Shown here: positions 6,224-48,161 of the stretch, in pieces | Position numbering within the stretch: position 1 is the first letter of the stretch | Layout: each line of letters begins with the position of its first letter | DNA from: a virus | Taxonomy: Duplodnaviria > Heunggongvirae > Uroviricota > Caudoviricetes | IMG/VR virus record: IMGVR_UViG_3300031873_001030 | Direction: 5' to 3' (one strand) | Length of the DNA: 64,000 nt | Program-made: the position numbers and the translations under genes | The notes under the pieces: model-generated | What the model was told of the DNA's origin: nothing | The model's database searches: none | Seen by the model: the letters and a program-made list of their open reading frames with translations, nothing else

Positions 6224-6949
6224 TTTGTATCGACTTTATCATTCGGTCAGGTAAGGCGGGTTCAGGTGGGGTATAGTTTCGGTTCGGTATGGTAGTTTGA
6301 CATTTATACGATACGGTAAGGTGAGGTTTGGAAGATAGTCTTTATGATTCGGTAAGGTGGGGTCAGTTGCGATTGTGTGAGGTTTGATTTGGTTTGGTCT
6401 GATTTGGTAGTTTGAGGCAAGGTAAAGTTAATTCCTTTTATATGATAAGGTATGGTCTAATTCGGTCTGGTTTGGTTGGATGGGCTACGTTCCGATAAGG
6501 TTCGGTATGGTAATATGACACTTATACGATTAGGTTCGGTCAGGTAAGGTTGGGTCAAATGCGATTAGGTAAGATGAGGTTCGGTCAGATACGGCAAGAT
6601 ATGGTATAATATTTATTCGGTTAGGTGAGGTCAGTTTAGGTCTGGTCTGATGTAGTTTGGCATGGTAGTATAACACTTATCGGTTTGGTTCGGTATGATG
6701 CGATATGGTCAGATTCGGTTTGATATGGTAGTATGACACTTATTGGTCAGGTTTAGTAGAATATGGTAAGGTTCGGTTCGATACGGTGGGATATGGTCAG
6801 TTAGGATTTGGAAAAGGAGAGAATAGTTTCAAGAAAGAATCAGCCCTTGGGTGAGTCCCTTGAAATGAAAAATGCCGCACCAGAGATGGTGATATTAGGT
6901 AAACTAATATAAATCAAGGTTCGAACCGTCCGTTAGGCAACGGTTCTCT

Positions 6950-7321: not shown

Positions 7322-7672
7322 TTATAATTTTTGGTCTGGTAGGGTGCGATTAGGTACGATTGGGTTTGGTCAGATAGGATATGATATGGACTATTGTAAT
7401 TTTCGGTTAGGTGCGGTTAGGTCTGGTTTGGTGCGTTCGAGGTGTGGTCAGATAGGATATGGAACTTTCATTCGTACTTTTCGGTAGGGCATTATTCGGT
7501 CCGATATGGTCTGGTCAATTCCGCTCTGGTTCGGTTAGATAGTGTATGGTGATATATGTTAAGTCGTGGTTTGGTTCGGTCTGGTAGAATGAGGTTTATC
7601 TTTTTTGATAGGCTATCGTTCGGTCTGGTGAGGTATGGTTCGGTAGGGTTCGGCAAGGTTTAATCCTTTTAG

Positions 7673-8793: not shown

Positions 8794-9276
8794 GTGATGA
8801 GTTACGACGAGACAAGTGATTTAGCATATCTGATATTATTCGTCGGTTGTATAATTGGATTGCTCATACTTATCGTTGGCTTAGTCGGATTTTTCAATCT
8901 TGTCCAAGGATTATATTTTTGGGATTGGTTCATACTATTTATCTTGACATTCCTAGCTTCAGAAGTTTTCTTCCTTCTTGTATTCAAGAAAAAACCGACA
9001 GGAAATGTATTCTGGAAGACATTTGGAAATAAGATTTTATCTTGGATGTCAGGTTCGTTGATAATCGCAGAATTTACTTCTTTCTATTATTACATTATTC
9101 TGAACATAATCAGAGATTGGCTTACCGTATTGGAAGTATTGACTACTATAGGAAAAATAATTGGAATAGGTGTGATGATTGCATCACTTATTGCTTTTTA
9201 CGTATGGTTCAACACTTTGAGATATAAAAATATCAAAGAACCTAAAGGGAAACTTAAAAAAGTATACAAGAGGTGA
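8794..9276 (+). CDS. polytopic membrane protein
   Basis: ORF track; four to five hydrophobic helices. Confidence 0.65.
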   Translation: MMSYDETSDLAYLILFVGCIIGLLILIVGLVGFFNLVQGLYFWDWFILFILTFLASEVFFLLVFKKKPTGNVFWKTFGNKILSWMSGSLIIAEFTSFYYYIILNIIRDWLTVLEVLTTIGKIIGIGVMIASLIAFYVWFNTLRYKNIKEPKGKLKKVYKR

Positions 9277-9280
9277 TTAG

Positions 9281-9610
9281 TTTCTGATAATTACTCAGAC
9301 ATTCACATTCGGACATAGTGAAAATCTTCTGGCAAGGATATTCTCCTCAAGCACAACACTTGCAAGATGCACATTTGTTTTCAATGAAAGACGCATAATA
9401 GAATATTATATCCGTGAAGAATGGGGTGGAAAAATTGCTGATACAAAAACTATTAATGGTTTCATAGACAGATTATGTAGAGACACCACGCATGAATTTG
9501 TTCATGCTCTTGGAAATTGCCATGTGGAATGGGTACCAAAGATGATGGATAGATGGATGAAAAAACGAATCATATATGCACATTCTGTGGGACAAAGGAA
9601 GGACCTATGA
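9281..9610 (+). CDS. HExxH (HEFVH) putative metallopeptidase-like ORF with no ATG/GTG/TTG near its 5' end
   Basis: Open frame from the stop at 9278-9280 to TGA 9608-9610. Its stop overlaps the next ATG (ATGA at 9607-9610). First canonical start is 87 codons in (GTG 9542); first ATG is 93 codons in (9560). Confidence 0.35.
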   Translation, partial: FLIITQTFTFGHSENLLARIFSSSTTLARCTFVFNERRIIEYYIREEWGGKIADTKTINGFIDRLCRDTTHEFVHALGNCHVEWVPKMMDRWMKKRIIYAHSVGQRKDL

Positions 9611-9681
9611 TACAGTTTGACTATGACGACTGGGAATGTGAAAAATGCCATAGGATGGGAAGACACATATCACGTAAATAA
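9607..9681 (+). CDS. 24-aa CxxC peptide
   Basis: ATGA overlap with the preceding ORF; MIQFDYDDWECEKCHRMGRHISRK. Confidence 0.3.
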   Translation: MIQFDYDDWECEKCHRMGRHISRK

Positions 9682-9702
9682 ATATGAATATCAAAATCAG
9701 AA

Positions 9703-10209
9703 TTGAAATATATGGAAGGATATAGTGTAAAGATTGGAAAGTGTTGTAATTGTAAAAAGGATATAACTAAAATGGGATTGAAAATAATAAAAGCAGAAGT
9801 TTTCACGAAAGAAGTATTTGACAAGATAATGAAAGGTGATTATATCGAAAATGCTAAGAAAGAGTATGAAAGCTTTTCCAATCAAAATCAGAGAAAAGGC
9901 CAATGGTTGTGGAATAAAATATGGGATAAAGTAGTTGATAAAGCAAAGAGACCAGAGAGTGAAAAAGATATTCTTGAAAATGAACAATTAGTTTCACATC
10001 ATCTATGGACTATGAAAGATTCTGAATTTGATGAGATGATGTCAAAGAGGGTAGATTGTTCTAAAATCTTGAAACTGATTGACGAATTTAGTAAAAAGTT
10101 TGATGTTAAGACTTTAGAATTATGTGGAGAAACTATAGAATATATTCCTATAACAATTGCAGACTGGAACAACTTTAAGGAAAAACTCAAGCAAGAGATT
10201 TTGAAATGA
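9703..10209 (+). CDS. hypothetical protein
   Basis: ORF track. Confidence 0.55.
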   Translation: MKYMEGYSVKIGKCCNCKKDITKMGLKIIKAEVFTKEVFDKIMKGDYIENAKKEYESFSNQNQRKGQWLWNKIWDKVVDKAKRPESEKDILENEQLVSHHLWTMKDSEFDEMMSKRVDCSKILKLIDEFSKKFDVKTLELCGETIEYIPITIADWNNFKEKLKQEILK

Positions 10210-10343
10210 TGATAACAACAGCAATATTCATATTACTGAAACTTTTTGTAGAGAATAATAGTGTATCTTGGTGGTGGATGTTACTTTTCATACTCTTTGA
10301 TTTGATGATGGTTCTTACTATCAGAGTAGATTTTGGAAGATGA
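10206..10343 (+). CDS. 45-aa small membrane protein
   Basis: ATGA overlap with the 9703..10209 stop; two hydrophobic helices (MMITTAIFILLKLF...WWWMLLFILFDLMMVLTI). Confidence 0.4.
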   Translation: MMITTAIFILLKLFVENNSVSWWWMLLFILFDLMMVLTIRVDFGR

Positions 10344-10347
10344 AATT

Positions 10348-10524
10348 ATGAGTTATAAATGTGAAAATTGTAAAGGAACAGTTCCAAACTGTATGCCACA
10401 AATAAAGATAATTGTAGAAAAGAGAGATAAGACATATCCGAATGGAAGCATTGGTTGGGAAACAGTCAAAGAGAAAGTATTGTGCAGTTCATGCAATAAG
10501 GATAAAGAGGTCAAAAAATCATAG
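10348..10524 (+). CDS. small zinc-ribbon protein (CENC...CSSC)
   Basis: ORF track (track start TTG 10333; ATG 10348 preferred). Confidence 0.5.
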   Translation: MSYKCENCKGTVPNCMPQIKIIVEKRDKTYPNGSIGWETVKEKVLCSSCNKDKEVKKS

Positions 10525-10649
10525 ATTTCAATCAGATAATTGACAAGTATCTGGATAGGGAAAGGAGAGAAAGAAAGATAGGGGAATATTATGTTAGCGA
10601 GATTCCATATTGTTTAAGATTAACTTGGTTTAGATTCAAACAGCCTAAA

Positions 10650-11186
10650 GTGACATCCAAAAAAACACTCAGGCTATTCGAGAGGGGCAATGTGATTCAT
10701 CAATTCATATCAAAAGTCCTATTGAGTTCGGAAGCAGTAAGGGAAGTAAAAAGTGAACAGTCACTAAGGATACCAAGGATATCTGACAACCCTAAGGAAA
10801 ATTTTCTAATCACAGGCAGATTTGATAACTTTATTGAATTAGTAGAAGGGGAAAATGTGCTGATTGAAGTGAAGACGACAAGAAATCTGGATTATCAGAA
10901 ATCAGCTTCATTGCATCATATCATGCAACTGACACCATATCTTTTATACAAGCAAGGTCTGAAAGGTGCCATATTGTATATAGACATGAACTTCCAGACA
11001 AAAGTATTTGAAGTGATTTATGACCCTAAATTGATGCTGGAAATAATGAAAAGGGCAGAAAATTTGCATATGTATTTAGTGGAAGACAAAATGCCGCTAC
11101 CAGAAGCCAAAGACATACCAGAAAAAAATTGGGAATGCAAATACATATGCAATTATAAAGAGGAATGTGATAAATGTGTTACCTAA
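10650..11186 (+). CDS. Cas4-like / RecB-family PD-(D/E)xK nuclease with Fe-S cysteines; the real N-terminus lies upstream of the track start
   Basis: GNVIH, GRFDNF...LIEVKT (D..ExK), QLTPY (QxxxY) and C-terminal CKYICNYKEEC. The conserved N-terminal SEIPYCLR with the fourth Cys is in frame upstream (10587-10610), where no canonical start exists. Confidence 0.7.
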   Translation: MTSKKTLRLFERGNVIHQFISKVLLSSEAVREVKSEQSLRIPRISDNPKENFLITGRFDNFIELVEGENVLIEVKTTRNLDYQKSASLHHIMQLTPYLLYKQGLKGAILYIDMNFQTKVFEVIYDPKLMLEIMKRAENLHMYLVEDKMPLPEAKDIPEKNWECKYICNYKEECDKCVT

Positions 11187-12039
11187 AGTCACATTTGCAG
11201 TCTGCGCATACAATGAGGAAAAGATTATCGCAGAATGTCTGAGACACATAAAGAACGTCGATTATCCTAACAAGGAGATAATAGTCGGAAGCGATGGGAC
11301 TGACAGGACAACTGAGATAGCACAAAATATTGGTGGTGTGGAAGTCATATCATCTGGAGAGAGGCTTGGAAAGACTCAGATGCTGATGAAGATAATAGAG
11401 CAAGCCAAAGGAGATATAATAATCATAAATGATGCTGAATTTTTCCTATTTCCAAATGACGCTGTCTACAAGATTGTAGAAAGTTTTGAGAACGAAAGGA
11501 TAGGAGGATTGTCATTTGGCTCTTCAGCTCCTCATGAGATTGACTTCACAAATTGGTGGGGACTCGTGGAACACGTGATACAGGACATATTCAGATATCA
11601 TAGGATGAAAAAGAACCCACTCACGTCATTGAAAGATGCTAATTTTATCATCGTAGCAAATGCTTTCAGAAAGGATATCATAACAAAGCTTGAGACGATA
11701 AATGATGATGCTGAGATAGGATATCAATTACTGTCTAAAAATCATTATCTGCTATATGTCCCTTCAGTCAGTTTCTATACACCTGGAGGTTCTGCAAAGA
11801 ACATAAAGGATAATATAAACCAGAGGTCAAGGACTGCAGTAGGATGGATACAGATAGGAAAGTTGTATAAGATAAACTTCTTGAGATTCTATATAATCTC
11901 TTTCTGGATGATTGTCAAACTGATATTCAGCCTGATAATCTGGACTGGAGTATTCATATTCAGCTACCTGAAAGGAAGATTCCTCTACATCATAGGCAGA
12001 AGGTCTTCAAAGCAAGTATGGACAAAGGTAAGAAGATGA
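11167..12039 (+). CDS. family-2 glycosyltransferase with C-terminal membrane helices
   Basis: VTFAVCAYNEEKII...YPNKEIIVGSDGTDRT and IIINDAEF (DxD-like) match the GT2 pattern. Confidence 0.8.
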   Translation: MINVLPKVTFAVCAYNEEKIIAECLRHIKNVDYPNKEIIVGSDGTDRTTEIAQNIGGVEVISSGERLGKTQMLMKIIEQAKGDIIIINDAEFFLFPNDAVYKIVESFENERIGGLSFGSSAPHEIDFTNWWGLVEHVIQDIFRYHRMKKNPLTSLKDANFIIVANAFRKDIITKLETINDDAEIGYQLLSKNHYLLYVPSVSFYTPGGSAKNIKDNINQRSRTAVGWIQIGKLYKINFLRFYIISFWMIVKLIFSLIIWTGVFIFSYLKGRFLYIIGRRSSKQVWTKVRR

Positions 12040-12374
12040 GAAAAAAATTCAATTATGAAAACTATTACAAGAAATATTATGAAAGTCATAAGGATAAGCA
12101 CTTGTATTATGTCAATGAATGGAAGAAGAAGCATAAAGATAGTGTAAGAATTTATTCCAAACGTTATTCCAAAAGTTGGAGATTGAGAAACAAAGAAAGA
12201 TTGAAGAAAACTTCAAAAAGATATTATGACAGGCATATCAGAAGTTCTTGGTTCGATAGGATATTTGGTTTCAAATGCAAAGTATGCGGCAAGAGATATA
12301 AAGATAAAAAGGCTTTGGGTGGGCATACCACATATTGTAAAAGAAAAAGGATTGAACTTATTAACATATGTTAA
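12018..12374 (+). CDS. basic Tyr/Lys-rich protein with C-terminal CxxC...HxxxC zinc finger
   Basis: ORF track; stop codon inside palindrome 12361-12374. Confidence 0.5.
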   Translation: MDKGKKMRKKFNYENYYKKYYESHKDKHLYYVNEWKKKHKDSVRIYSKRYSKSWRLRNKERLKKTSKRYYDRHIRSSWFDRIFGFKCKVCGKRYKDKKALGGHTTYCKRKRIELINIC

Positions 12375-12411
12375 AAAGATTGCATGCAGATAACTTCTTA
12401 ACATATGTTAA
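12361..12411. repeat. palindrome pair (12361-12374, 12398-12411) enclosing a 23-bp insert
   Basis: Read directly; insert aaagattgcatgcagataacttc. Confidence 0.95.
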
Positions 12412-12446
12412 TTGCTCGGAAATTCCGAAAAGCAGAAGGTAATGAC

Positions 12447-12995
12447 ATGGACCCATTGTGGAACAAGAAATTAGAGATAATAAAGAAGCATGGTATAGAC
12501 AATGCTATTTTGGATTTAGGATGCAACATAGGTGACTTCTCCTCATATTTCGTGAGAAATGGATATGATGTGACTGGCGTCGACATAGACAATGAAAATT
12601 TGCTCATAGCAAACAGCAGAGGGATACATACGAAAAAATGCAATCTGAATCTGAAATTGCCTATGAAAAGCAATTCATATCCTACCATCTTCGCATTGGA
12701 GATAATAGAGCATCTCATCAATCCAGACAATGTCATAAAGGAAGCGCATAGACTGCTCAAAGATGGCGGGAAGTTTTATGTGTCAGTCCCATACTTCGGA
12801 CTAGTAAAAAGAACAGCGATATCGCTGTTCTTTTTTGATGATGTCTTTCTATATAATGGTCCGCATATAAGATTTTTCTCTGAAAAATCTTTCCGTAATA
12901 TATTGACAAAAAATGGATTCAAGATTCTCAAGATTTATAAACTTGGAAGATTCTATCCAGTCTATATGGACATGCTTGCCGTATGCTCTAAATAA
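12447..12995 (+). CDS. class I SAM-dependent methyltransferase (Methyltransf_11-like)
   Basis: ILDLGCNIGDF motif I, LEIIEHL, LKDGGKFYVSVP. Track start 12405 is the ATG inside the palindrome; ATG 12447 preferred. Confidence 0.75.
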   Translation: MDPLWNKKLEIIKKHGIDNAILDLGCNIGDFSSYFVRNGYDVTGVDIDNENLLIANSRGIHTKKCNLNLKLPMKSNSYPTIFALEIIEHLINPDNVIKEAHRLLKDGGKFYVSVPYFGLVKRTAISLFFFDDVFLYNGPHIRFFSEKSFRNILTKNGFKILKIYKLGRFYPVYMDMLAVCSK

Positions 12996-16499: not shown

Positions 16500-16775
16500 T
16501 AAACCACAGATTACCAGACCATACCCGAACCTATAAGACCACATCACACCTGAGCGAAAAGTGTTAACCATACCACATCAGACTTTATCATGCCTTACCA
16601 GTCCTTAACATATCGTAACTTACCACAACGTAGCATAAATGACAATCCATATCTTACCACACACCAACATATCTTACCAAAACCCACCCTAACCCATCTA
16701 ACCCAATCATAAATATAATCCCTATCTTACCAAATCCCATCACAACGGACCCTACCAAATCAGACCCCGTTAAAT
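16500..16775 (-). repeat. GGTNN pentanucleotide tract on the minus strand (NNACC on +)
   Basis: 5-nt reading ttacc agacc atacc ... accaa aaccc accct aaccc; lies downstream (sense) of minus-strand gene 16869..17171. Confidence 0.8.
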
Positions 16776-17742: not shown

Positions 17743-18933
17743 ATGACGTTGAAGAATCTTGTAACGCCATTGGAACTTAAGACTCTCTGGGATTCTGAAT
17801 ATTACAAATCAATATTGACAGCTACAGCTAGCAGCTGCCAATTTGGAAGGATAAGAGAACACCAACGTAATAATACATTCAAAGAAATCAGAGCCAATCT
17901 GAATGCTCTGATAGTTGGAGAATATGGAATTGGGAAATCCACAATGTTGGACATTAAGAATGTCCCAATAGTCAGGGCTAATACAGTTTCAGTTGCTGGA
18001 CTAGCTGGAACTACGACAAGAAGTGGGGAACACGTTATTGGAGCTGCATATAAAGCTAATAATAAATTACTAATTATAGATGACGTTGGTAGTGGTGAAA
18101 ATTCTTATATAGATAATTCTGTAAAACGATGCATGAATCTGCTATTGGAACCTCCGCATACTTTTTCACGAATGTTAGGATTTAAGATGAACATTCCTGT
18201 GAAAGAGAAGAAGGGTGGAGCTTGGGTGAAAGGAAGTGAGAATCAGTTTACATTGCGTTCTAAGTTCAGTTGCATCGTAGCTACAACATCAGTTGTAATT
18301 CGAAATACTGATGACAAAGCTTGGATGTCAAGATTCGTACCAGTAAAACTACATGGTAGTGTGGATTACATGTTTGAATTTTTATCTGGTTCTAATCCAT
18401 TTACAATTACTGGTTTGAATCGGAAAGTCAAGTTATTTGAATTTCCAGATTATCTGGAATTCTTGGAATTCTATGAAGAACATTTTCGTGGAAGTCTGTG
18501 GGAGAAAAGCATAATAGAAAAGGAAGATGAAGTCGGTTCTATAGCGAGAAATACTGGTGACTTGGTAAGATTGGCTGCTTTCAATTGCGCTGTCGATGAT
18601 AGAATAAATATAGAATTTGAAGATGCCAAGAAAGTTTTTGATAGGTTCTACAATCAGATATGGTTCAATATCCAAGTTGGACCACTGACTCATGAACAAT
18701 ATAGAGTTCTATTACTTCTCAATAAGAAGTTGACTGAAGATGAGATAGCAGAAACTATACAAAGGTCACAGCCTTACGTATCTAAGATGATAGAGAAATT
18801 TGAAAGTAAGGGAATACTTGTAGACAGAAAAGTTGCGAAAGAAGTTGAAAACTTTAAACAAACTTCATGGGAAAAACTCGAACCACAGCAGACTTTATCA
18901 GAATCTGTAAAGTTAGATGGTAGTCATGAGTGA
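17743..18933 (+). CDS. MCM-like AAA+ ATPase with C-terminal winged helix-turn-helix
   Basis: Walker A VGEYGIGKST, Walker B LLIIDDVG, sensor-1-like CIVATTS, Arg-finger-like MSRF (MCM SRFD), and C-terminal LTEDEIAETIQRSQPYVSKMIEKFESKGIL. Confidence 0.65.
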   Translation: MTLKNLVTPLELKTLWDSEYYKSILTATASSCQFGRIREHQRNNTFKEIRANLNALIVGEYGIGKSTMLDIKNVPIVRANTVSVAGLAGTTTRSGEHVIGAAYKANNKLLIIDDVGSGENSYIDNSVKRCMNLLLEPPHTFSRMLGFKMNIPVKEKKGGAWVKGSENQFTLRSKFSCIVATTSVVIRNTDDKAWMSRFVPVKLHGSVDYMFEFLSGSNPFTITGLNRKVKLFEFPDYLEFLEFYEEHFRGSLWEKSIIEKEDEVGSIARNTGDLVRLAAFNCAVDDRINIEFEDAKKVFDRFYNQIWFNIQVGPLTHEQYRVLLLLNKKLTEDEIAETIQRSQPYVSKMIEKFESKGILVDRKVAKEVENFKQTSWEKLEPQQTLSESVKLDGSHE

Positions 18934-21728: not shown

Positions 21729-22961
21729 TTGGAGATGAAAGTGATGAACATAGGTGAAGTTGAAATTGGAAAACCTTGGCAATATAAGGAAAATTCTATT
21801 GGAATTGTTGTTCCACTTTTAAGGAAGAATCAAGTCAAAAGAAATTATAAGACAGTTGAGGAAGTTAAGGAGATGATGAATATCAAGGATACTGGAAATA
21901 TAGACAGTGTTGAAATTTCCTCAAAAGTCAATGAACCAGTTTTTATCAGGAGCGGGACGATGTTTGAAGGGGTTGGAACTCAGAGCAGGACGCCAACAAC
22001 TAGCATTGTCATAATTCCAAATCAACAGCCTATGAAAGTTCCTGTAAAATGCATACATGCTTCTCATCACATATCTTCTGGAAGCAACTTTAAAGTCGCA
22101 GGTAGTATTCCCCACTATATTGGTTATGCAGCTTTTGGACCAAGGGCTAGTCAATCTCGTGTGTGGTCTTCTGTAAGCATGCAAGCAAGTTCTGTAAGCC
22201 ATCATGCTATGCATCTTTCTGACAATCTTATCGATAACGTAAGAAAAATAGAAACTTTTAAGAAAGATATTGGCGAAGCAGTTAAAAACTATCCGATATT
22301 GAAAAATCAAGTTGGTATAGTTGTTCTTGATTTTAACGGGGTTGTTGGTCTTGAGATGTTTGATAATTCTGAATCTTGGGCAGCAGTATGTAAAGACATA
22401 ATCAATAAGTATTCTGACACAATAACACAGCTTGTTGACAGTCCTTTATTTTCATTGAATGAAGAAAGCATAAAACCAAAGATATTGGAATTCTTGAAGA
22501 AGCTGACAGAAGCAAAAGAAGAGATTATCTTTCAAGCAGATGTGATGAAAACAATCTTATTGGAAAATGGAGATATCATTGGAGAATGTACGAGTATTGA
22601 TGGCAGGATGATACATCTCATGGGAATGAAAAAGAAGGATGAGGAAAGGACATATGGTTCAGTTGCTCCAAATAATTTACCATTTACACCACAAAATTGG
22701 ACAACCAGAGGTTCTAACTATTCTGTGCTATCTGCACTTGGAGATGGAAGTAGGAGATTTTCAGAAATAGAGAAAACAACTAAATTATCCCCAGCTACAG
22801 TAAGCAAAAATTTAAGCAAGTTCCATTCTCTTGGATTTATTGACAAGTCAGCAGAAATAATAAACAACAAGGCCCGTGAAGTTTATAGCCTTACAAGCAA
22901 CGGTAAAAATGCATTTTTTACTATGCATGATGTCAGGAAGAAATTGATGAAGCTTGGATAA
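21729..22961 (+). CDS. uncharacterised N-domain fused to a C-terminal wHTH (ArsR/TrmB-like)
   Basis: C-terminal YSVLSALGDGSRRFSEIEKTTKLSPATVSKNLSKFHSLGFI. Confidence 0.6.
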   Translation: MEMKVMNIGEVEIGKPWQYKENSIGIVVPLLRKNQVKRNYKTVEEVKEMMNIKDTGNIDSVEISSKVNEPVFIRSGTMFEGVGTQSRTPTTSIVIIPNQQPMKVPVKCIHASHHISSGSNFKVAGSIPHYIGYAAFGPRASQSRVWSSVSMQASSVSHHAMHLSDNLIDNVRKIETFKKDIGEAVKNYPILKNQVGIVVLDFNGVVGLEMFDNSESWAAVCKDIINKYSDTITQLVDSPLFSLNEESIKPKILEFLKKLTEAKEEIIFQADVMKTILLENGDIIGECTSIDGRMIHLMGMKKKDEERTYGSVAPNNLPFTPQNWTTRGSNYSVLSALGDGSRRFSEIEKTTKLSPATVSKNLSKFHSLGFIDKSAEIINNKAREVYSLTSNGKNAFFTMHDVRKKLMKLG

Positions 22962-24479: not shown

Positions 24480-24527
24480 TGTCAAATTAGAAATGCAATA
24501 CGATTGTTAACAAGAAAGTTAACAAAG

Positions 24528-24598
24528 TCTCACCTGCCAGAATTGCACCAGCATCTACGAGGCTACAGCTCGTTGTTCTACTGTTGAACTAAGGCGAG
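24528..24598 (-). tRNA. tRNA-Tyr (GTA)
   Basis: Hand fold CTCGCCT-TA-GTTC-AACAGTA-GAAC-A-ACGAG-CTGTAGC-CTCGT-AGAT-GCTGG-TGCAATT-CTGGC-AGGTGAG-A; C1-G72 as in archaeal/eukaryal tRNA-Tyr. Confidence 0.75.
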
Positions 24599-24601
24599 TT
24601 G

Positions 24602-24674
24602 TGGGGATGCTGAGATTTGAACTCAGATTATTCGCTTCCAGAGCGAAGGTTCTAACAAGTTATACTACATCCCC
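24602..24674 (-). tRNA. tRNA-Pro (TGG)
   Basis: Acceptor GGGGATG/CATCCCC, anticodon arm TTCGC-TCTGGAA-GCGAA, T arm CTGAG-TTCAAAT-CTCAG. Confidence 0.85.
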
Positions 24675-24677
24675 AAG

Positions 24678-24751
24678 GGAGAATAGAGGGATTTGAACCC
24701 TCTCTAACAAGTTCACAGCTTGACGTGCTCGCCTACTACACCATATTCTCC
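24678..24751 (-). tRNA. tRNA-His (GTG) with genomically encoded G-1
   Basis: G-GAGAATA...TATTCTC-C, D stem GTGT/GCAC, anticodon loop CTGTGAA, T arm GAGGG-TTCAAAT-CCCTC. Confidence 0.8.
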
Positions 24752-25212
24752 ATTTTATTATGTTCTTCTCTATGGCAATTTGCACATAGAAGTTTGCATT
24801 TCTGCAATTCTTTTCGTATCACCTCGAGACTATTATGCCATATTCTGGATATTTCATATTTCTTTTCTCCGTTCATATGATGAAATTCAAGTGCTGCGAA
24901 ACATTTGTTATATCCACATTTTTGACATTTACCTCCAAATTCCATTTTCATAATTTTTGTTTTTTCTTGGTTTTTACGCTTTTGTGCTATATACCACAAA
25001 TGTCTCTGAGGGAGAGATGATTTTTGTTTATGTTGTTTTATATATTTTCTCATATATTCTCTATGATATTTTTTCCTTTTTTCTCTGTTTTCAGGGTTTG
25101 ACAACCAAATTTTCCATCGTTCTTTTTCTTGCTCACGGTGTGATTTTCTATATAATCTATTTATTTCACACAATCGTTCTTTGTTTTTTTCATAATATTT
25201 TTTACTGGTCAT
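24736..25212 (-). CDS. HNH endonuclease with N-terminal basic Tyr/Lys-rich region, inserted in the tRNA cluster
   Basis: CQKCGY...LEFHH...N...CANCHREEH; its 3' end overlaps tRNA-His by 16 nt. Confidence 0.8.
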   Translation of the reverse strand: MTSKKYYEKNKERLCEINRLYRKSHREQEKERWKIWLSNPENREKRKKYHREYMRKYIKQHKQKSSLPQRHLWYIAQKRKNQEKTKIMKMEFGGKCQKCGYNKCFAALEFHHMNGEKKYEISRIWHNSLEVIRKELQKCKLLCANCHREEHNKMENMV

Positions 25213-25255
25213 ATAATGTAATTGTTTAATACCATTTATATTTGTTGTTGAACTA

Positions 25256-25330
25256 CGCTCTGGGCAAGACTCGAACTTGCAATTTCTCCGTTAACAGCGG
25301 AGCGCTTGTACCTGTTTAAGCTGCCAGAGC
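25256..25330 (-). tRNA. tRNA-Asn (GTT)
   Basis: GCTCTGG-CA-GCTT-AAACAGGTAC-AAGC-G-CTCCG-CTGTTAA-CGGAG-AAATT-GCAAG-TTCGAGT-CTTGC-CCAGAGC-G. Confidence 0.85.
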
Positions 25331-25333
25331 AAG

Positions 25334-42054: not shown

Positions 42055-42583
42055 AATCTTGAATGTCGGTTGTGGTAATGATACCTATGGAACGGATTTT
42101 ATAGACATGTATCCGATGAGAAAGGAAGTAAGAAGATGCGATATTGAGAATGAGAAGCTTCCATTCAAGGATAATACTTTTGACGAAGTGTATTCTGAAA
42201 ACTTTTTTGAGCATCTGAAAAATCCAAGCAATGTGTTGAAGGAAATGAGAAGAGTGTTGAAGCATGGAGGCAAGCTTGTAGTCATAACAGATAATGCTGG
42301 ATTCTGGGCATTTCATATTGCTGGTGCTACTACTCACTATGGAGGATATGAGAAGAAAAGTTTTGGAAAATTGGACAGGCATTTCGGATTGTTCACCCCT
42401 TGGCATCTGAAAAATCATTTTGAAGATATCGGACTGAAAAATATCATGTATAAATATAGGTTATTGAGAAAGAAAAATCCTTATTGGTATGTGAGAATAA
42501 TTTCAAATGTCATAAGTGTTGTGACTAAGAGAATGGGACAATCGCAGATAAGGATTGAAGGTATTAAACAATTTACCAAATAA
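42044..42583 (+). CDS. class I SAM-dependent methyltransferase
   Basis: ILNVGCGND, LPFKDNTFDEVYSENFFEHL, LKHGGKLVVITDN. Confidence 0.8.
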   Translation: MVARILNVGCGNDTYGTDFIDMYPMRKEVRRCDIENEKLPFKDNTFDEVYSENFFEHLKNPSNVLKEMRRVLKHGGKLVVITDNAGFWAFHIAGATTHYGGYEKKSFGKLDRHFGLFTPWHLKNHFEDIGLKNIMYKYRLLRKKNPYWYVRIISNVISVVTKRMGQSQIRIEGIKQFTK

Positions 42584-43328
42584 TTTGGTACAATTCAATT
42601 GTTCTATTTGGAAAACCAAAAGAATTTGATGTGTTTACTTCTTCATCATTTTGAGGTTCGATGAAAATTCTACCTTTGTCTGTAGTGTTGAATATTATTA
42701 TTGCATGCCCTATTGTGTAATTTTTCCATTCAATATATACTAAGCCAATACTGATGTGTTGTTTAAGAGAATTTAATATGATGTCTCGACTAAAGTCCCA
42801 ACAATTATAAGTTTCATTATATGTGTTTTCATTTGTCTTATCAGTAGCTATGAAATTTTTCATATCATTATATGTTGGGTCTTGAGAATTTTCATAGAAA
42901 AGGTAGTCATTTAAATTCCACGTATTACGATAGAATGTTGTCAAGTTAGTTGTGTTAAAGACTGATATATTTGTTATGTTCAATACTGTCAAATTAGTTG
43001 TGTTAAAGACTGATATATTTGTTATGTTCAATACTGTCAAATTAGTTGTGTTAAAGACTGATATATTTGTTATGTTCAATGTTGTCAATTCTGTTATGTT
43101 CGTTACGTTTAATACTGTGATATTAGTTATGTTAAGAATTTTGATGTTTGATATCGAACTGTTGACTAAATTTATCTTATCGTCTAAAAGAGTTTTTACA
43201 CTGCTTAGTTCATTTTGTGTGGAAGTTAGACTTTTTTGTATTTCAGATGTTTTTTGAATCTGAAAAATTATTGTAATCAAGGTTGCAATAAAAATTGTGG
43301 AAAAGACGAAGATTGTCTTTGAATCCAT
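42573..43328 (-). CDS. membrane-anchored protein: NIT/NTT 16-aa repeats plus a C-terminal Cys-His domain (possible thiol-peptidase/transglutaminase-like core)
   Basis: TM helix near the N-terminus; NITNISVFNTTNLTVL x3; YNCWDF...IGHAIIIF...IEPQNDE. Confidence 0.65.
   Translation of the reverse strand: MDSKTIFVFSTIFIATLITIIFQIQKTSEIQKSLTSTQNELSSVKTLLDDKINLVNSSISNIKILNITNITVLNVTNITELTTLNITNISVFNTTNLTVLNITNISVFNTTNLTVLNITNISVFNTTNLTTFYRNTWNLNDYLFYENSQDPTYNDMKNFIATDKTNENTYNETYNCWDFSRDIILNSLKQHISIGLVYIEWKNYTIGHAIIIFNTTDKGRIFIEPQNDEEVNTSNSFGFPNRTIELYQIIW
42939..43082 (-). repeat. 48-bp tandem repeat x3 (near perfect), with degenerate copies to ~43140, inside CDS 42573..43328
   Basis: Units start at 42939, 42987 and 43035. 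Confidence 0.9.
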
Positions 43329-43919: not shown

Positions 43920-44162
43920 TGTGAGTTGAAGAAAACATGTCACATGGGGAAAAAAGACAGAGAAGGAAAAAAACTAAGAAGCAAAGGCAAAGAAAAAGGA
44001 TGAAAGAGAGGAGAGACAAAGGGAGGTAATCTATGAATGAGATTGACATCCATGAAATGAATTATTTCATCGACATGGTGTCACCAGCTTATCAAGATGA
44101 GTTGTGAAAAAAATGAGATGCGAAAACAATAGGGGTAATTGCCCAATTTGGAGGGTTTTGTA

Positions 44163-47100
44163 ATGGCAAATAGTATTTTTGGTCAGCCTCAGCCAAATCC
44201 ATTTTCACCAGGCACGACATTGCCGTCATCAAATGTAAGTGTGACGCCAAGTATGCCCATTGGTGGATTGACTGTAGGATTAGGAGGAAGTGGAAATGTT
44301 TATTATGGAGGAGCGCCTGCTGGAGGAGTTGGTCAGACTACAACAACAACTGGAGGTCCTGCGATTTATATTCCTCCACAGGAGACTGCAAAAGCAGCAG
44401 AAAAAACAATAACTCCTGCTTTGATTCCTGAAATAAAACCGCCAACTTTAAAAGTTGGTGTCGGCGGATTGGTAGAAGGTTTGGGAAAATCTGGTAATGT
44501 ATATGAAGGTGGTGTGCTTGTTGGAGGTACTACTCCATGGGGTCCTGTAGTTAAGGAAGGTGGTGTCAGTTATGTCCCAACTGGAAGGACAGCTGAAACT
44601 GGAGAGACAATTTATTCTGGAACTCAGATAAGTTCTGCAACACCTATTGGAACTTTTGTGCCTGCAAAGAGAATTGAAATAACTCCACTGATGCCAGAGA
44701 TTAGTGTACAACCAGCTACAGCTGGTGCTATAGGTCTTTCATTTCCTGCAGGTGTTTTGTCTGTAAAATCTGGTCCAGTTGATGTGAGCAAACTTTCTCC
44801 AGATGTGCAGACTGCGTTGGGAAATCTTCAAGGAAAGGTGCAGGCTGAATATCCAGGATTCAAGCTTGCAAGTTGGACTCGTGAAGGTGATGAGCTGAAA
44901 GGTGTTTTGGAACCTGTGAAGTATGTCTCACTTGGAACTGATGTTACGAAAGCGACTGCTGCCATAAAGGATTTGGGATTGAAAGAAGGTGATTATAAAT
45001 TATATACTGGAATTGGTGGGGATTATCAGCTTGTGACTGATAAGGTGTCAAGCCAGAAATACGTGAGTGGTCTTCTTTCCAGTTATTCAGTTATTCCTAT
45101 AACTGGGTATGGACAGTATAGAGGGTCTGATGAGAGGATTGCATTGAAGTTTCTTGATAAGGAAGGTTATATCAAAGATGGTGTGATAAGCAAAGATGTT
45201 CAAGTGATAGGGGATATAGGAGTAGGAGGAACTGGTGCGATGATAGTTTTAAAGGGAAGTACAAAGAGTTCTGAAGATTTGTCAAAGACTTATTTTTCTT
45301 CCTTGACTGAAGTGCAGAAGGAAGATACTGCGATGGCAAGAGGAGAGTTGCAGATTGCTCAGGAAAAGGAACTTTTGAGACAACCTGGTATGAGTGTTGA
45401 AAAGGGAGCTGCTTGGTGGAATTTGAATGTTGGTCCTTATATGCTTTCTCCAAAGGACCCTCTTGGTCTGAGGAGTGCTTACATAGGAGTTGAAGGTTTG
45501 GTAAAAGGAACTCCTGTCAGTGTCATACAAAAGGACATAGAAGCTAGCAGGCTTTCTGCAGAACAGGAATTTCTTCAGAGAAAATATATGGGAGAGTCTT
45601 GGACTAAATCATTATGGGAAGCTCCTGCAACGCAGCCTTTGAAAGTTGCTGCTACTTGGTATGGCGGTGGTCTTTTGTTGGGAGGTGCTGCTGGAGTTCT
45701 TAAAACTGCTGAAGTAGGTGCTGGTATAGTATCAAAAGCTCCATGGCTTGCAACTACAGGAAGAGTTATTTCAACTGCTGGAAAAGTTGCGACAAGTGTT
45801 CCAGGACAAGTTGTAATTGGTTCAGGATTGTATGGTTTTACTGAAAGAGGAAATATAATGGCACTTGCAAAAGGAGGTGTTCCAAGAGACATTGTTCCTG
45901 GAATGATTTTTGACGCATCACAATTTGGATTTGCATATGGCGGTGCAGCTGCAGGTTTTCCAGTTGGTTATTCTAGAGGTGCTGGATTGGGTTATGCTTT
46001 CAAGCCTGGTGCATTGCCTCCATCTGAAACATTCGTGGCAGAAATCAGAGGGACTGGAGTATCTGGAATTCCAGGTGAATTGCAAGGATTGAAACTTGGG
46101 ACAAGGGTTGCTGGAGAAGTTCCAAAGGGTTTTGTTCCAAAAGGATTTAGTGAAGGTGTTCCTTATAGGGCGTTCTTGCAGGAGGGTGTGACAGTTACAA
46201 GAGCTGGAGAAGTTGTACCTTCTGGGACTTTGATGCCAACTATTGCAGAAATGGAACCTGCAAAACCTTTGATGCAGAGGATTGCCACTGCAATGACAAA
46301 GCCAAGCGAATTGATTCCTAAGATGCTTCCTGGAGGACCTACTGTTGAAGCTCCTTTTCTTGAATCAATCAGATATGGTGAAGAAAAGATAGCGAAAGGA
46401 GGAACTAAGGATATTTATGCTGCAGGTTATCAGCCAGGAACTACAATATGGTCAAGATTGAAGATGCCTGTTGAAGGAGCGCAGTATGGGATTGCTGAAG
46501 GTTTTAAGACTGTTACAGCTGAGAGTCCTCTTGCTTCGTTGACAGAAAAATACACTACAAGGATGGCATTGAGAGCTACTGGCGCTCCTATTGAAGCGGG
46601 AGATGTTGTTCCAGTGAAAATAATGGCAAAGACAGATTTTATTGTAAATGATGAAGGGATAGCTGCGATGTTGAAATCTGGAAAGAATCTTGCAGATATT
46701 GAAAAATTGAAAGGTGCTGATATAATACAGCGTGATATTGAATTTGCAGATAAGCCTGCTGTAAGGTACACTAGATTTATTGATAAGGAAACTGGAAAAT
46801 CTTTGGTTGTGTTGAAGCAGACTGCAGCTCCTACAATAGAGGAAGTTGTTGCTTTGGCAGAGGAAGGAAAGACTTTGATAAAACCTGAATATGTTGGAGG
46901 AAAGGTTGCAGGCTATAGTATAAGAGGTACTGAAATAGTTGGAGAGGGGAAAGAATTTGCAGGAGGAGTGCGTTATAAAAAGGGTGTTGAAGTAGTTGGT
47001 AAGGAACAAGTGACAGGAATAGCTCTTGATGATAAGACATTTAACGCATTGATGGATAAATATGGAAACAAGATATTGAGGGTTTCATCTCCGACAACTG

Positions 47101-48161
47101 CAAGAGATATAGCAGCTCTTGAGGCAAGTGCTGAAGGCGGTGTCACAAGAGGGACAAGCGAGCTTTCTGTCATCAGATACGTCTCAAGGGGACAATTTGA
47201 AGATTATCTGAAATCAAGAACTGGAGTAAGTAGTGTGAAGGGTGGTGAATATCCTCCTACTGAAGCTGGAACTTTTGGAACTGTTTCAATTGAAAGGCCT
47301 GAAGTTCCTAGACTTCCTAAGGTACCAGAAGAAAAAATAGTTCCACCTGAAGCTGGAGTTTCAAAAGGAGGTCTTATGTCTGAAGGCGAGAGAGTGATGT
47401 CAATTGCTCTTTCAGAAGAAGTTGGAAGACCAGCAGTCGGATTGGAAGAACGTCCTTTGAGATTCACTGAAAAGTATTTTGGGATGCAAACTCCATCCTT
47501 TGGAGTGACATCTGTTGAAGGTGCAGGGATAATAAGTTCTGACATAGCCATTGCTACAAAGTCTGCTGTTGGAATGCGTGAACAATTAGTTGCAGCTCCA
47601 GAGATTAGTGTTAGAACTATGTTGAAACCATCTGCAATTATGACTAGTGTAAATATTGAGGATGTGTTGCTTAAGATTTCTGAAAGTATTTTAGGCAAGT
47701 TGCAGCCAAGGATAAGTACTGATATCACTGATGTAGGAATGAGGATTGAACCGATAACTTCTCCTATTGTTACAACTAAGGTTACAACTGCTGTTGATAT
47801 AACACCTATACCTATGAATTTGATAGCTCCTATTACAACTTTTAAAGGACCAATTGTGACTGTCAGACCTCCAATAATACCTCCTGGTGGTGGGGGCGGT
47901 GGTGGAGAAGGTAAAAAACCTGAAAGAGAATATTTTGGATATTTCGGTCGTAAAAAAGCAGGAAAGAGAATTTTAAGTTCTGATTTGTTTTCTGTTGCTG
48001 TGTCTCAGGCTGCGTATGGAAAAGCCACTACTCCAAAGTTTAGTAGGAAAGAAGTTTCTGAACTTGAGAGCAGAGGTTTGATAAGAGTTCCTACAGCTGA
48101 GATATCTGGAATCCCAAGTTCTGGAGAATTATTGAAAAGATTGTTAGGAGGTAGAAAATGA
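44163..48161 (+). CDS. 1332-aa Gly/Val/Ala/Pro/Thr-rich protein of unknown function
   Basis: Uninterrupted ORF; GGAGGG precedes ATG 44163; no TM helix seen; G7 run and basic tail near the C-terminus. Confidence 0.8.
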   Translation: MANSIFGQPQPNPFSPGTTLPSSNVSVTPSMPIGGLTVGLGGSGNVYYGGAPAGGVGQTTTTTGGPAIYIPPQETAKAAEKTITPALIPEIKPPTLKVGVGGLVEGLGKSGNVYEGGVLVGGTTPWGPVVKEGGVSYVPTGRTAETGETIYSGTQISSATPIGTFVPAKRIEITPLMPEISVQPATAGAIGLSFPAGVLSVKSGPVDVSKLSPDVQTALGNLQGKVQAEYPGFKLASWTREGDELKGVLEPVKYVSLGTDVTKATAAIKDLGLKEGDYKLYTGIGGDYQLVTDKVSSQKYVSGLLSSYSVIPITGYGQYRGSDERIALKFLDKEGYIKDGVISKDVQVIGDIGVGGTGAMIVLKGSTKSSEDLSKTYFSSLTEVQKEDTAMARGELQIAQEKELLRQPGMSVEKGAAWWNLNVGPYMLSPKDPLGLRSAYIGVEGLVKGTPVSVIQKDIEASRLSAEQEFLQRKYMGESWTKSLWEAPATQPLKVAATWYGGGLLLGGAAGVLKTAEVGAGIVSKAPWLATTGRVISTAGKVATSVPGQVVIGSGLYGFTERGNIMALAKGGVPRDIVPGMIFDASQFGFAYGGAAAGFPVGYSRGAGLGYAFKPGALPPSETFVAEIRGTGVSGIPGELQGLKLGTRVAGEVPKGFVPKGFSEGVPYRAFLQEGVTVTRAGEVVPSGTLMPTIAEMEPAKPLMQRIATAMTKPSELIPKMLPGGPTVEAPFLESIRYGEEKIAKGGTKDIYAAGYQPGTTIWSRLKMPVEGAQYGIAEGFKTVTAESPLASLTEKYTTRMALRATGAPIEAGDVVPVKIMAKTDFIVNDEGIAAMLKSGKNLADIEKLKGADIIQRDIEFADKPAVRYTRFIDKETGKSLVVLKQTAAPTIEEVVALAEEGKTLIKPEYVGGKVAGYSIRGTEIVGEGKEFAGGVRYKKGVEVVGKEQVTGIALDDKTFNALMDKYGNKILRVSSPTTARDIAALEASAEGGVTRGTSELSVIRYVSRGQFEDYLKSRTGVSSVKGGEYPPTEAGTFGTVSIERPEVPRLPKVPEEKIVPPEAGVSKGGLMSEGERVMSIALSEEVGRPAVGLEERPLRFTEKYFGMQTPSFGVTSVEGAGIISSDIAIATKSAVGMREQLVAAPEISVRTMLKPSAIMTSVNIEDVLLKISESILGKLQPRISTDITDVGMRIEPITSPIVTTKVTTAVDITPIPMNLIAPITTFKGPIVTVRPPIIPPGGGGGGGEGKKPEREYFGYFGRKKAGKRILSSDLFSVAVSQAAYGKATTPKFSRKEVSELESRGLIRVPTAEISGIPSSGELLKRLLGGRK

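Follow-up and report, generated by a model that had tools for sequence, protein, structure and literature searches.

Probable translation initiation at an AUC codon in a Cas4-family nuclease gene of IMG/VR record IMGVR_UViG_3300031873_001030

How is a gene translated when no ATG, GTG, or TTG codon precedes its conserved N terminus? The question is raised by a Cas4-like nuclease gene in IMG/VR virus record IMGVR_UViG_3300031873_001030 (Caudoviricetes), of which we analyzed a stretch of 64,000 nucleotides (the window). A preliminary description, made from the sequence alone, had proposed that a −1 frameshift on a run of six A residues (A6) fuses the nuclease to a zinc ribbon encoded just upstream. 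As an alternative, it had offered initiation at ATC 10518 or ATA 10521, behind AAGAGG. Our comparison with relatives favors the first of these two codons, which aligns with Met1 of homologs. Translation of the nuclease probably starts directly at AUC 10518, led by a Shine-Dalgarno motif and not via a frameshift. Initiation at AUC or AUA, taken together, is likely to the same degree or a shade more. The gene belongs to a known family, and its start codon is uncommon.

The nuclease and its N terminus

On the + strand, the nuclease frame is open from 10506 to its terminal TAA (11184 to 11186), and the TAA that precedes it is at 10503 to 10505. Counted from ATC 10518, the coding sequence (10518 to 11186) has 222 codons plus the stop. 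Its first ATG, GTG, or TTG is GTG 10650 (10650 to 10652), which is codon 45 and is a start picked by automatic gene callers. Cys32 (TGT, 10611 to 10613) and the segment EYYVSEIPYCLRLTWF both lie 5′ of this GTG. A reading of positions 10200 to 11300, together with the list of open reading frames (ORFs), confirmed every sequence statement of the preliminary description, among them that the frame is open from 10506 with no canonical start before GTG 10650, and the fourth iron-sulfur (Fe-S) cysteine and the canonical N-terminal segment are upstream of it. By a rough estimate, 48 start-less codons have a chance of ~8% in DNA of 35% G+C and hence are not rare.

We compared the 222-residue translation with family profiles. 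It matched Pfam PF12705 (PDDEXK_1) at 30.5 bits (cut-off, 22), and PF01930 was not reported. NCBIfam TIGR00372 (cas4) gave 50.8 bits, under its curated cut-off of 65, and PADLOC Cas4 models matched with E values from 4.5e-14 to 8e-07. When a family profile was run against PDB sequences, it found the solved Cas4 SSO0001 (4ic1; E = 9e-21). An AlphaFold model built with 34 sequences had a mean predicted local distance difference test score (pLDDT) of 92.6 and a predicted template modeling score (pTM) of 0.88. Its best PDB match by Foldseek was again 4ic1 (E = 1e-10; template modeling score, 0.69 to 0.73), over the full length and 224 columns.

The residues expected of such an enzyme were all located. 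In the 34-sequence alignment, the D...ExK and QxxxY residues are invariant: D103 (10824 to 10826), E117 (10866 to 10868), K119 (10872 to 10874), Q137 (10926 to 10928), and Y141 (10938 to 10940). So are the cluster cysteines, one N-terminal (C32) and three C-terminal (C207, 11136 to 11138; C211, 11148 to 11150; and C217, 11166 to 11168). This bears out the motifs named in the preliminary description (D..ExK, QxxxY, and a three-Cys C-terminal cluster). The frame of 222 codons is intact, and all 12 invariant family residues are present. The C-terminal cysteines are spaced C-x3-C-x5-C in the window (CKYICNYKEEC), whereas most of the family has C-x2-C-x5-C.

Tandem Repeats Finder and a repeat search revealed no CRISPR array in the window. 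Of 10 window proteins screened, the nuclease alone matched Cas4/Cas1 adaptation or effector models, and two other proteins had weak matches to CasR/Csa3 regulator models in their winged helix-turn-helix (wHTH) regions. Judged by its sequence, the gene product is a Cas4-family PD-(D/E)XK nuclease of 222 residues that stands alone (solo or mobile-element type). Profiles, fold, and homologs thus support the earlier description of a stand-alone, Cas4-like enzyme with a four-Cys cluster, and its statement that other cas genes and a CRISPR array are lacking agrees with these searches.

Does the homology extend 5′ of GTG 10650? PHROG 1706 ("CRISPR/Cas system associated") matched from residue 14 and PHROG 1990 ("Cas4-domain exonuclease") from residue 7, so family homology reaches well 5′ of this codon. 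The pLDDT was 90 to 98 across the first 40 to 44 residues, and the model shows the N-terminal 44 residues built into the nuclease fold. GTG 10650 is not the biological start, because helix 1, strand 1, and Cys32 would be lost.

We also examined coding evolution, using a syntenic strain, L094 (a 28.8-kb Logan assembly from SRR35961417), that has ~94% nucleotide identity to the window over 10179 to 12463. In nuclease codons 1 to 44, the proportion of synonymous differences (pS) was 0.36 and that of nonsynonymous differences (pN) was 0.08, a ratio of 0.22. The ratio for codons 45 to 174 was 0.25. When the same bases were read in the other two frames, pN/pS was about 5 and about 0.8. Furthermore, GTG 10650 reads GTA in L094 (10652 G>A). 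The low ratio and the unconserved GTG indicate that the segment 5′ of GTG 10650 is translated in the nuclease frame. Given that these upstream 44 codons fit family profiles, are modeled at high pLDDT, and are under purifying selection, the gene is real and so is its lack of a canonical start.

Public gene calls are all N-terminally short. The JGI call has 164 residues, from GTG 10692, and the Logan calls have 178 residues, from GTG 10650, and 192 residues, from a TTG specific to strain L094. Automatic calling therefore shortens the nuclease by 30 to 58 residues, each time without the first Fe-S cysteine. Databases thus carry a broken version of an intact enzyme, and the same is expected for any gene with a start other than ATG, GTG, or TTG.

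An alternative genetic code was considered and rejected. TAA, TGA, and TAG all terminate long ORFs in the window. If TAG were a sense codon, the zinc-ribbon frame would meet a TAA four codons further on. ATA as a non-Ile codon was rejected because it encodes Ile at conserved family positions (e.g., nuclease residue 7). The nuclease is the sole long + strand gene of the window in which a Shine-Dalgarno motif is followed by an ATH codon before the first canonical start.

The codon in the Met1 column

To locate the start in homologs, we searched 1.84 billion representatives exhaustively with HMMER, which gave 523 homologs. Of the best 150, most are 215 to 235 residues long and align from their residues 1 to 15 to query residues 1 to 5. 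Met1 of ~12 of 33 aligned proteins is in the column of ATC 10518 (including P0002, P0004, P0007, P0020, P0026, P0035, and P0040). Homologs begin MIDFDKIID or MVDFDALID there, and the window reads IIDFNQIID. At the DNA level, the homologs' ATG is aligned exactly with ATC 10518 (ATGATAGATTT in a homolog, ATCATAGATTT in the window). The closest relative locus, L008 (48% identity), has ATGATTGACTTT, loci L009, L010, and L012 have ATGATAGATTTTGAC, and L011 has ATGATTGATTTT, where the window has ATCATAGATTTCAAT.

We extended the comparison to species-representative genomes, a scan of which gave 175 loci. Of these, 80 were kept, nearly all of them DPANN archaeal (Aenigmatarchaeota, Iainarchaeota, and Woese-, Pace-, Undin-, and Micrarchaeota); some family relatives are in viral contigs. 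A census of the Met1-column codon covered 91 loci, 88 of them scorable. The codon was ATG in 69, TTG in 4, GTG in 1, ATC in 3, and ATT in 1, and the remaining scored loci mostly have an ATG one or two codons upstream of the column. From the DNA comparison and this census, we infer that the initiation codon is ATC 10518 (10518 to 10520), an ancestral ATG with one G-to-C change at its third base, and that the family is stand-alone. The canonical N-terminal segment is kept in the family, as the preliminary description had implied. The homologs do not start where GTG 10650 lies, and therefore the nuclease gene is not simply truncated.

Candidates for further ATC cases among truncated representatives were rejected. 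P0064 has an ATG that the caller skipped, and P0050, P0114, P0132, and P0141 come from short contigs, at or close to their ends, and are uninformative. A word search for close relatives returned the truncated self call P0001 as its only match, an exact-sequence query with P0001 gave nothing, blastn against phage GenBank records gave no match, and viral contigs searched with the single protein yielded nothing.

The codon has a ribosome-binding site in front of it. The Shine-Dalgarno motif AAAGAGGT is at 10504 to 10511 on the + strand and includes the AAGAGG (10505 to 10510) noticed previously. Its GAGGT ends 6 nt, and its AGAGG core 7 nt, before ATC 10518. AGAGGT followed by 7 nt and ATG recurs in the window at 669, 1194, 5869, 23097, and 41751. 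In a rough gene list of the window, GAGGT/GGAGG motifs are frequent 5 to 10 nt before predicted starts, and the form found here is recurrent. The spacer between motif and ATC is CAAAAA, and the A6 run (10513 to 10518, + strand) shares its last A with the first base of ATC. Other starts in the window have A-rich spacers with A7 to A8 (AGAGGTAAAAAAAATG after 5869 and GGAGGAAAAAAAATAATG before 49090), and the + strand has 82 runs of A6 or longer in 64 kb. Because such spacers occur at other starts here, the A6 run is the expected A-rich spacer of a ribosome-binding site. In AT-rich DNA, finding an A-run where two genes overlap is insufficient to call a frameshift.

Could the start be missing only because of a sequence error or a minor variant? 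The true sequence might have ATG at 10518, or A7, which would give a genuine fused ORF. The window is a metagenome assembly, and homopolymers and single-base variants are classic error sites. However, an independent Logan assembly (L100, from SRR9651338) is 100% identical to window positions 8893 to 12024 (3132 nt), junction included, and the diverged strain L094 has the same junction, GATAAAGAGGTCAAAAAATCATAGATTTC, with the same A6 and ATC. Both reproduce the two features, which makes A5, A7, or ATG assembly errors improbable. The length of the A6 run, which the preliminary description had wanted verified, is therefore the same in three assemblies, and another A6, at 9560 to 9565, is likewise identical in all three. 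An error has hardly any probability left.

ATC in the Met1 column is not confined to the window and L094. Three Aenigmatarchaeota-type genomes (L063, L085, and L089; the gene is at 1501 to 2163 in each) also have ATC ATA there. Their proteins are 80 to 91% identical to each other, ≤59% identical to any ATG-start relative, and ~40% identical to the window protein. In L063 and L085, the 9 open codons before the ATC contain no canonical start, and the first one thereafter comes at codon +35 or +43, 3′ of Cys32. L089 has a GTG three codons upstream of ATC, within an AAGTGAT motif. Comparison of codons 1 to 35 between L063 and L085 gave 18 synonymous changes and 0 nonsynonymous ones, with synonymous sites near saturation. 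The S-adenosylmethionine (SAM) synthetase gene upstream in this clade is divergent, being encoded on the opposite strand; with no ORF available there, a fusion is impossible. Automatic ORF lists begin these three genes at codon 36 to 44. A conserved promoter-like element, CAACTTTATCTAA, is ~30 to 40 nt upstream of them, beside the SAM synthetase gene.

In L052 (233 to 910), the Met1-column codon is ATT. It follows the GG of GGTGAT by 8 nt, a spacing that ATG has in L046 and L057. L052 also has an in-frame ATG and GTG four and three codons upstream, overlapping the Shine-Dalgarno motif itself. This ATT may represent a third near-cognate start of independent origin in the family. The apparently independent ATH events among ~82 lineages are thus ATC in the window and L094, ATC in L063, L085, and L089, and ATT in L052. 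As far as these alignments tell, ATC as the Met1 codon is compatible with long-term gene function and arose at least twice. Whether near-cognate AUH starts are a recurrent, selected feature of the solo-Cas4 family in DPANN archaea and mobile elements, holding a potentially harmful nuclease low much as AUU does for infC, is more doubtful, and we offer this only as a tentative suggestion.

There are precedents for initiation at such codons. In Escherichia coli, AUC, AUA, AUU, and CUG initiate at ~1 to 2% of AUG, with Met as the residue inserted at AUC (bioRxiv 10.1101/063800). Ribosome profiling of Haloferax classed ~30% of putative alternative start sites as near-cognate (PMC7261190). At the window locus, the ribosome would be placed by the consensus Shine-Dalgarno sequence AAAGAGGU (10504 to 10511) on a polycistronic mRNA. 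The initiator tRNA would then start at AUC 10518, presumably inserting Met. Because the nuclease start overlaps the last 7 nt of the zinc-ribbon cistron (AUCAUAG), termination-reinitiation coupling may help. AUC is expected to be weak and would give a low nuclease level, and keeping the nuclease scarce might be its purpose. The reading is supported by the homology to Met1, the consensus and spacing of the ribosome-binding site, the coding-type evolution of codons 1 to 44, and the independent ATC clade.

Several points weigh against initiation at AUC. We know of no archaeon in which it has been measured. Going by the mainly DPANN family, the host is probably archaeal, with no marker among the window genes examined. 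ATA 10521, 9 nt after GAGGT, is also near-cognate and is equally well spaced. The junction is in a near-identical patch of the window and L094 (5 differences in 400 nt), and because divergence is patchy there, its identity in L094 replicates the sequence and is not evidence of selection on ATC. Finally, a recognizable Shine-Dalgarno motif is absent in 56 of 70 chromosomal DPANN homologs, and the L063 clade may therefore initiate in another way than the window gene.

If near-cognate starts are indeed a recurrent, selected feature of the family, this would be the first comparative evidence of a stably maintained AUC initiation codon in Archaea. An ATC start is found in two unrelated lineages of one nuclease family, and one of them has kept it across three species-level genomes. 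The nuclease offers a clean case in which near-cognate initiation can be tested for uncultured archaea, a subject on which we know of almost no data.

Frameshifting, gene decay, and the neighboring codon

The upstream cistron is a small zinc-ribbon ORF (10348 to 10524, + strand) of 58 residues with two CxxC pairs. It ends GTC AAA AAA TCA TAG, with the stop at 10522 to 10524, and overlaps the nuclease start by 7 nt (ATCATAG). In a search of 5.8 billion proteins its only homolog was itself, and none of its 174 nt differ in L094. Chromosomal homologs of the nuclease have other neighbors. We rejected the idea of a conserved zinc-ribbon partner, because the closest homolog, L008, has a Cys-rich ORF that overlaps by ATGA and is unrelated to the small protein of the window.

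About 1 kb upstream is a second gene without a canonical start. Its + strand frame is open from 9281 to 9610 (110 codons), and its first ATG, GTG, or TTG is at codon 82. The product is HExxH (HEFVH) metallopeptidase-like. Neither it nor the zinc ribbon of 10348 to 10524 had any significant match in Pfam, PHROG, NCBIfam, or PADLOC. The frame is directly behind a strong Shine-Dalgarno motif, AAGAGGTGAT (9268 to 9277), and continues TTT CTG ATA ATT. A 93%-identical relative (P0151; L094 and L096) begins ATG ATA ATT GTG ATA ATC. Window DNA differs upstream, and the homology begins at TGATAAT, so this ATG was lost by rearrangement. The 3′ end of the gene overlaps a 42-residue zinc-ribbon ORF (9553 to 9681) in the −1 frame, with the A6 run at 9560 to 9565 in the overlap. 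It is the only other candidate for a general relaxation of start-codon use in the element, and since rearrangement explains it, we rejected that idea.

Is the nuclease fused to the zinc ribbon after all? Programmed −1 frameshifting or transcriptional slippage on A6 could do this, alone or besides AUC initiation. The geometry in the preliminary description is correct, since after GTC AAA AAA a −1 shift on A6 (10513 to 10518) leads to ATC ATA GAT TTC. From the density of 82 runs per 64 kb, we estimate that an A6 within the productive 16 to 19 nt is expected only ~2 to 3% of the time. The metallopeptidase-like gene supplies a second A6/−1 junction, and loss of ATG would be neutral in a fused product. 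Programmed −1 sites are defined by a slippery heptamer, X-XXY-YYZ, and A-AAA-AAT promotes −1 frameshifting in fucA1 of Saccharolobus solfataricus, the one documented cellular −1 programmed frameshift in Archaea (PMC8211752). However, the zero-frame heptamer at the window A6 is C-AAA-AAA, which is not of that form. Only the A-site tRNA re-pairs perfectly, and the P-site tRNA would need to re-pair with CAA. A stimulatory RNA structure would be expected 5 to 9 nt downstream, but none was evident in the 102 nt at 10519 to 10620. Their minimum free energy of −10 kcal/mol is weaker than the shuffled mean (z = +0.99), and 169 of 200 shuffles fold at least as well. In dnaX, a Shine-Dalgarno-like element roughly 10 nt from the slip site stimulates −1 shifts, but the element here ends 2 nt before A6, which is not that distance. 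A6 is also short for transcriptional slippage, A-rich spacers that include A7 to A8 are normal at starts in this element, and the other ATC clade has no possible fusion partner. The preliminary description had suggested looking for a zinc ribbon and nuclease in a single ORF elsewhere. No zinc ribbon extends the N terminus in any of the 150 listed family representatives, and the eight longest extensions among them lack paired CxxC motifs. The related DNA loci examined have stand-alone homologs and no zinc ribbon-Cas4 fusion, including the 75 of 91 scored with a canonical start in the Met1 column. With no fused homologs among those examined, an imperfect heptamer, no structure, and an A6 run that is explained as a spacer, the proposed frameshift fusion is very unlikely, and slippage, if any, would be at a low level.

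The remaining alternatives keep the nuclease unfused. Its start codon might have been lost by mutation, leaving a young pseudogene that is silent or yields only a truncated product from GTG 10650 without Cys32. ATC is one substitution from the family ATG, gene callers choose downstream starts, and the metallopeptidase-like neighbor at 9281 to 9610 also lost its ATG, in that case via rearrangement. However, decay is hard to reconcile with an intact 222-codon frame that keeps every invariant family residue, with pN/pS of 0.22 to 0.25 against L094, the part 5′ of GTG 10650 included, and with a consensus Shine-Dalgarno motif retained before ATC. GTG 10650, from which the truncated product would start, is the codon that is not conserved in L094. 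In L063, L085, and L089, moreover, ATC has persisted through saturating synonymous divergence under strong purifying selection. We consider a pseudogene unlikely. Initiation might instead be at ATA 10521, giving a protein one residue shorter. Its spacing of 9 nt from GAGGT is as common as 7 nt for ATG starts here, ATAG overlaps the upstream stop by 4 nt, as the common ATGA does, and ATA is kept as codon 2 in L063, L085, and L089. However, the family Met1 aligns with ATC and not with ATA, and ATA is also the second codon in 26 of 65 ATG-start loci and so is not special. Little probability attaches to ATA as the start, and AUC 10518 is the codon that we favor.

The surrounding element and known counterparts

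The window has 34 to 42% G+C and is coding mostly on the + strand. Its genes include glycosyltransferases, methyltransferases, an SPFH protein, an ARPP-1/wHTH protein, and a weak MCM-like P-loop/wHTH protein. A PHROG scan of ten large ORFs recognized no virus hallmark genes, and the window may be either a mobile element or a fragment of a DPANN-type genome. Divergence from L094 is patchy and there is a rearrangement breakpoint, which suggests from the sequence comparison that this is a recombining element.

A GT2 glycosyltransferase gene overlaps the 3′ end of the nuclease gene, and its start is ambiguous (window 11157 to 11178). Behind the Shine-Dalgarno motif GAGG (11160 to 11163), the candidates are GTG 11167 (3 nt), the in-frame ATA 11170 (6 nt), and GTG 11176 (12 nt). 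A P-loop protein with a weak MCM-like match (17743 to 18933) has a C-terminal MarR/TrmB-type winged helix, and an ARPP-1 domain is fused to a winged-helix domain at 21729 to 22961 (Pfam E = 2.8e-25). Both kinds of protein are characteristic of conflict systems or mobile elements in archaea. Four tRNA genes (Tyr-GTA, Pro-TGG, His-GTG, and Asn-GTT) are on the minus strand at 24527 to 25331.

Degenerate repeats of 25 to 40 nt are found in ORF-poor stretches at 6491 to 6640, 7355 to 7426, and 16650 to 16772. They are of the type TACGATTAGGTTCGGTCAGGTAAGG and 34 to 47 nt apart, and the copies near 16.7 kb are ACC-rich, apparently in reverse complement. They resemble iterons or binding-site arrays and perhaps mark a replication origin. 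A tandem repeat with a 48-nt unit (24-nt sub-period; ~3 copies, 97% identity) is at 42934 to 43157, within the minus-strand ORF 42573 to 43328. A giant ORF of 3752 residues (49389 to 60647) consists largely of DUF285 (BspA-like) repeats (Pfam E = 2.8e-138) and contains an array with a 75-nt period at 51780 to 52751. Just upstream of it is a 1340-residue ORF with no family match (44139 to 48161).

How does the locus compare with known systems? It is like fucA1 of S. solfataricus in that two overlapping ORFs are in the 0 and −1 frames with an A-run in the overlap. However, fucA1 has a perfect A-AAA-AAT heptamer, rare codons, a stem-loop, and homologs that are single full-length ORFs, whereas the window has an imperfect heptamer, no downstream structure, and homologs that are unfused among those examined. 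The AUU starts of E. coli infC and pcnB are a different parallel. These are also near-cognate AUH codons behind a Shine-Dalgarno motif in genes that are intact and conserved, although the codon here is AUC and not AUU, no autoregulatory logic is known here, and the host is probably archaeal.

The enzyme itself resembles Cas4 SSO0001 of S. solfataricus (PDB 4ic1). The two share a fold, the D...ExK and QxxxY motifs, and the arrangement of cysteines (one N-terminal, three C-terminal), and they are similar in length, at about 200 to 220 residues. Their identity is only 20 to 23%, and the window protein scores under the TIGR00372 cut-off. Unlike CRISPR-associated Cas4, it is not beside cas1/cas2 or an array. 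In this it is like the solo-Cas4 of DPANN archaea and the mobile genetic element-encoded Cas4 (MGE-Cas4) of archaeal viruses, which are cas4-like, stand-alone, and outside CRISPR loci. Most DPANN genomes encode solo-Cas4, and solo-Cas4 and MGE-Cas4 proteins are not functionally characterized (Hudaiberdiev et al. 2017, PMC5704561). The window nuclease could have a role in repair, defense, or anti-defense. It is ~42% identical to the chromosomal DPANN clade and 48% identical to its nearest relative, P0002. Unlike DPANN solo-Cas4, it has an ATC start and sits in a patchily diverged, rearranged element.

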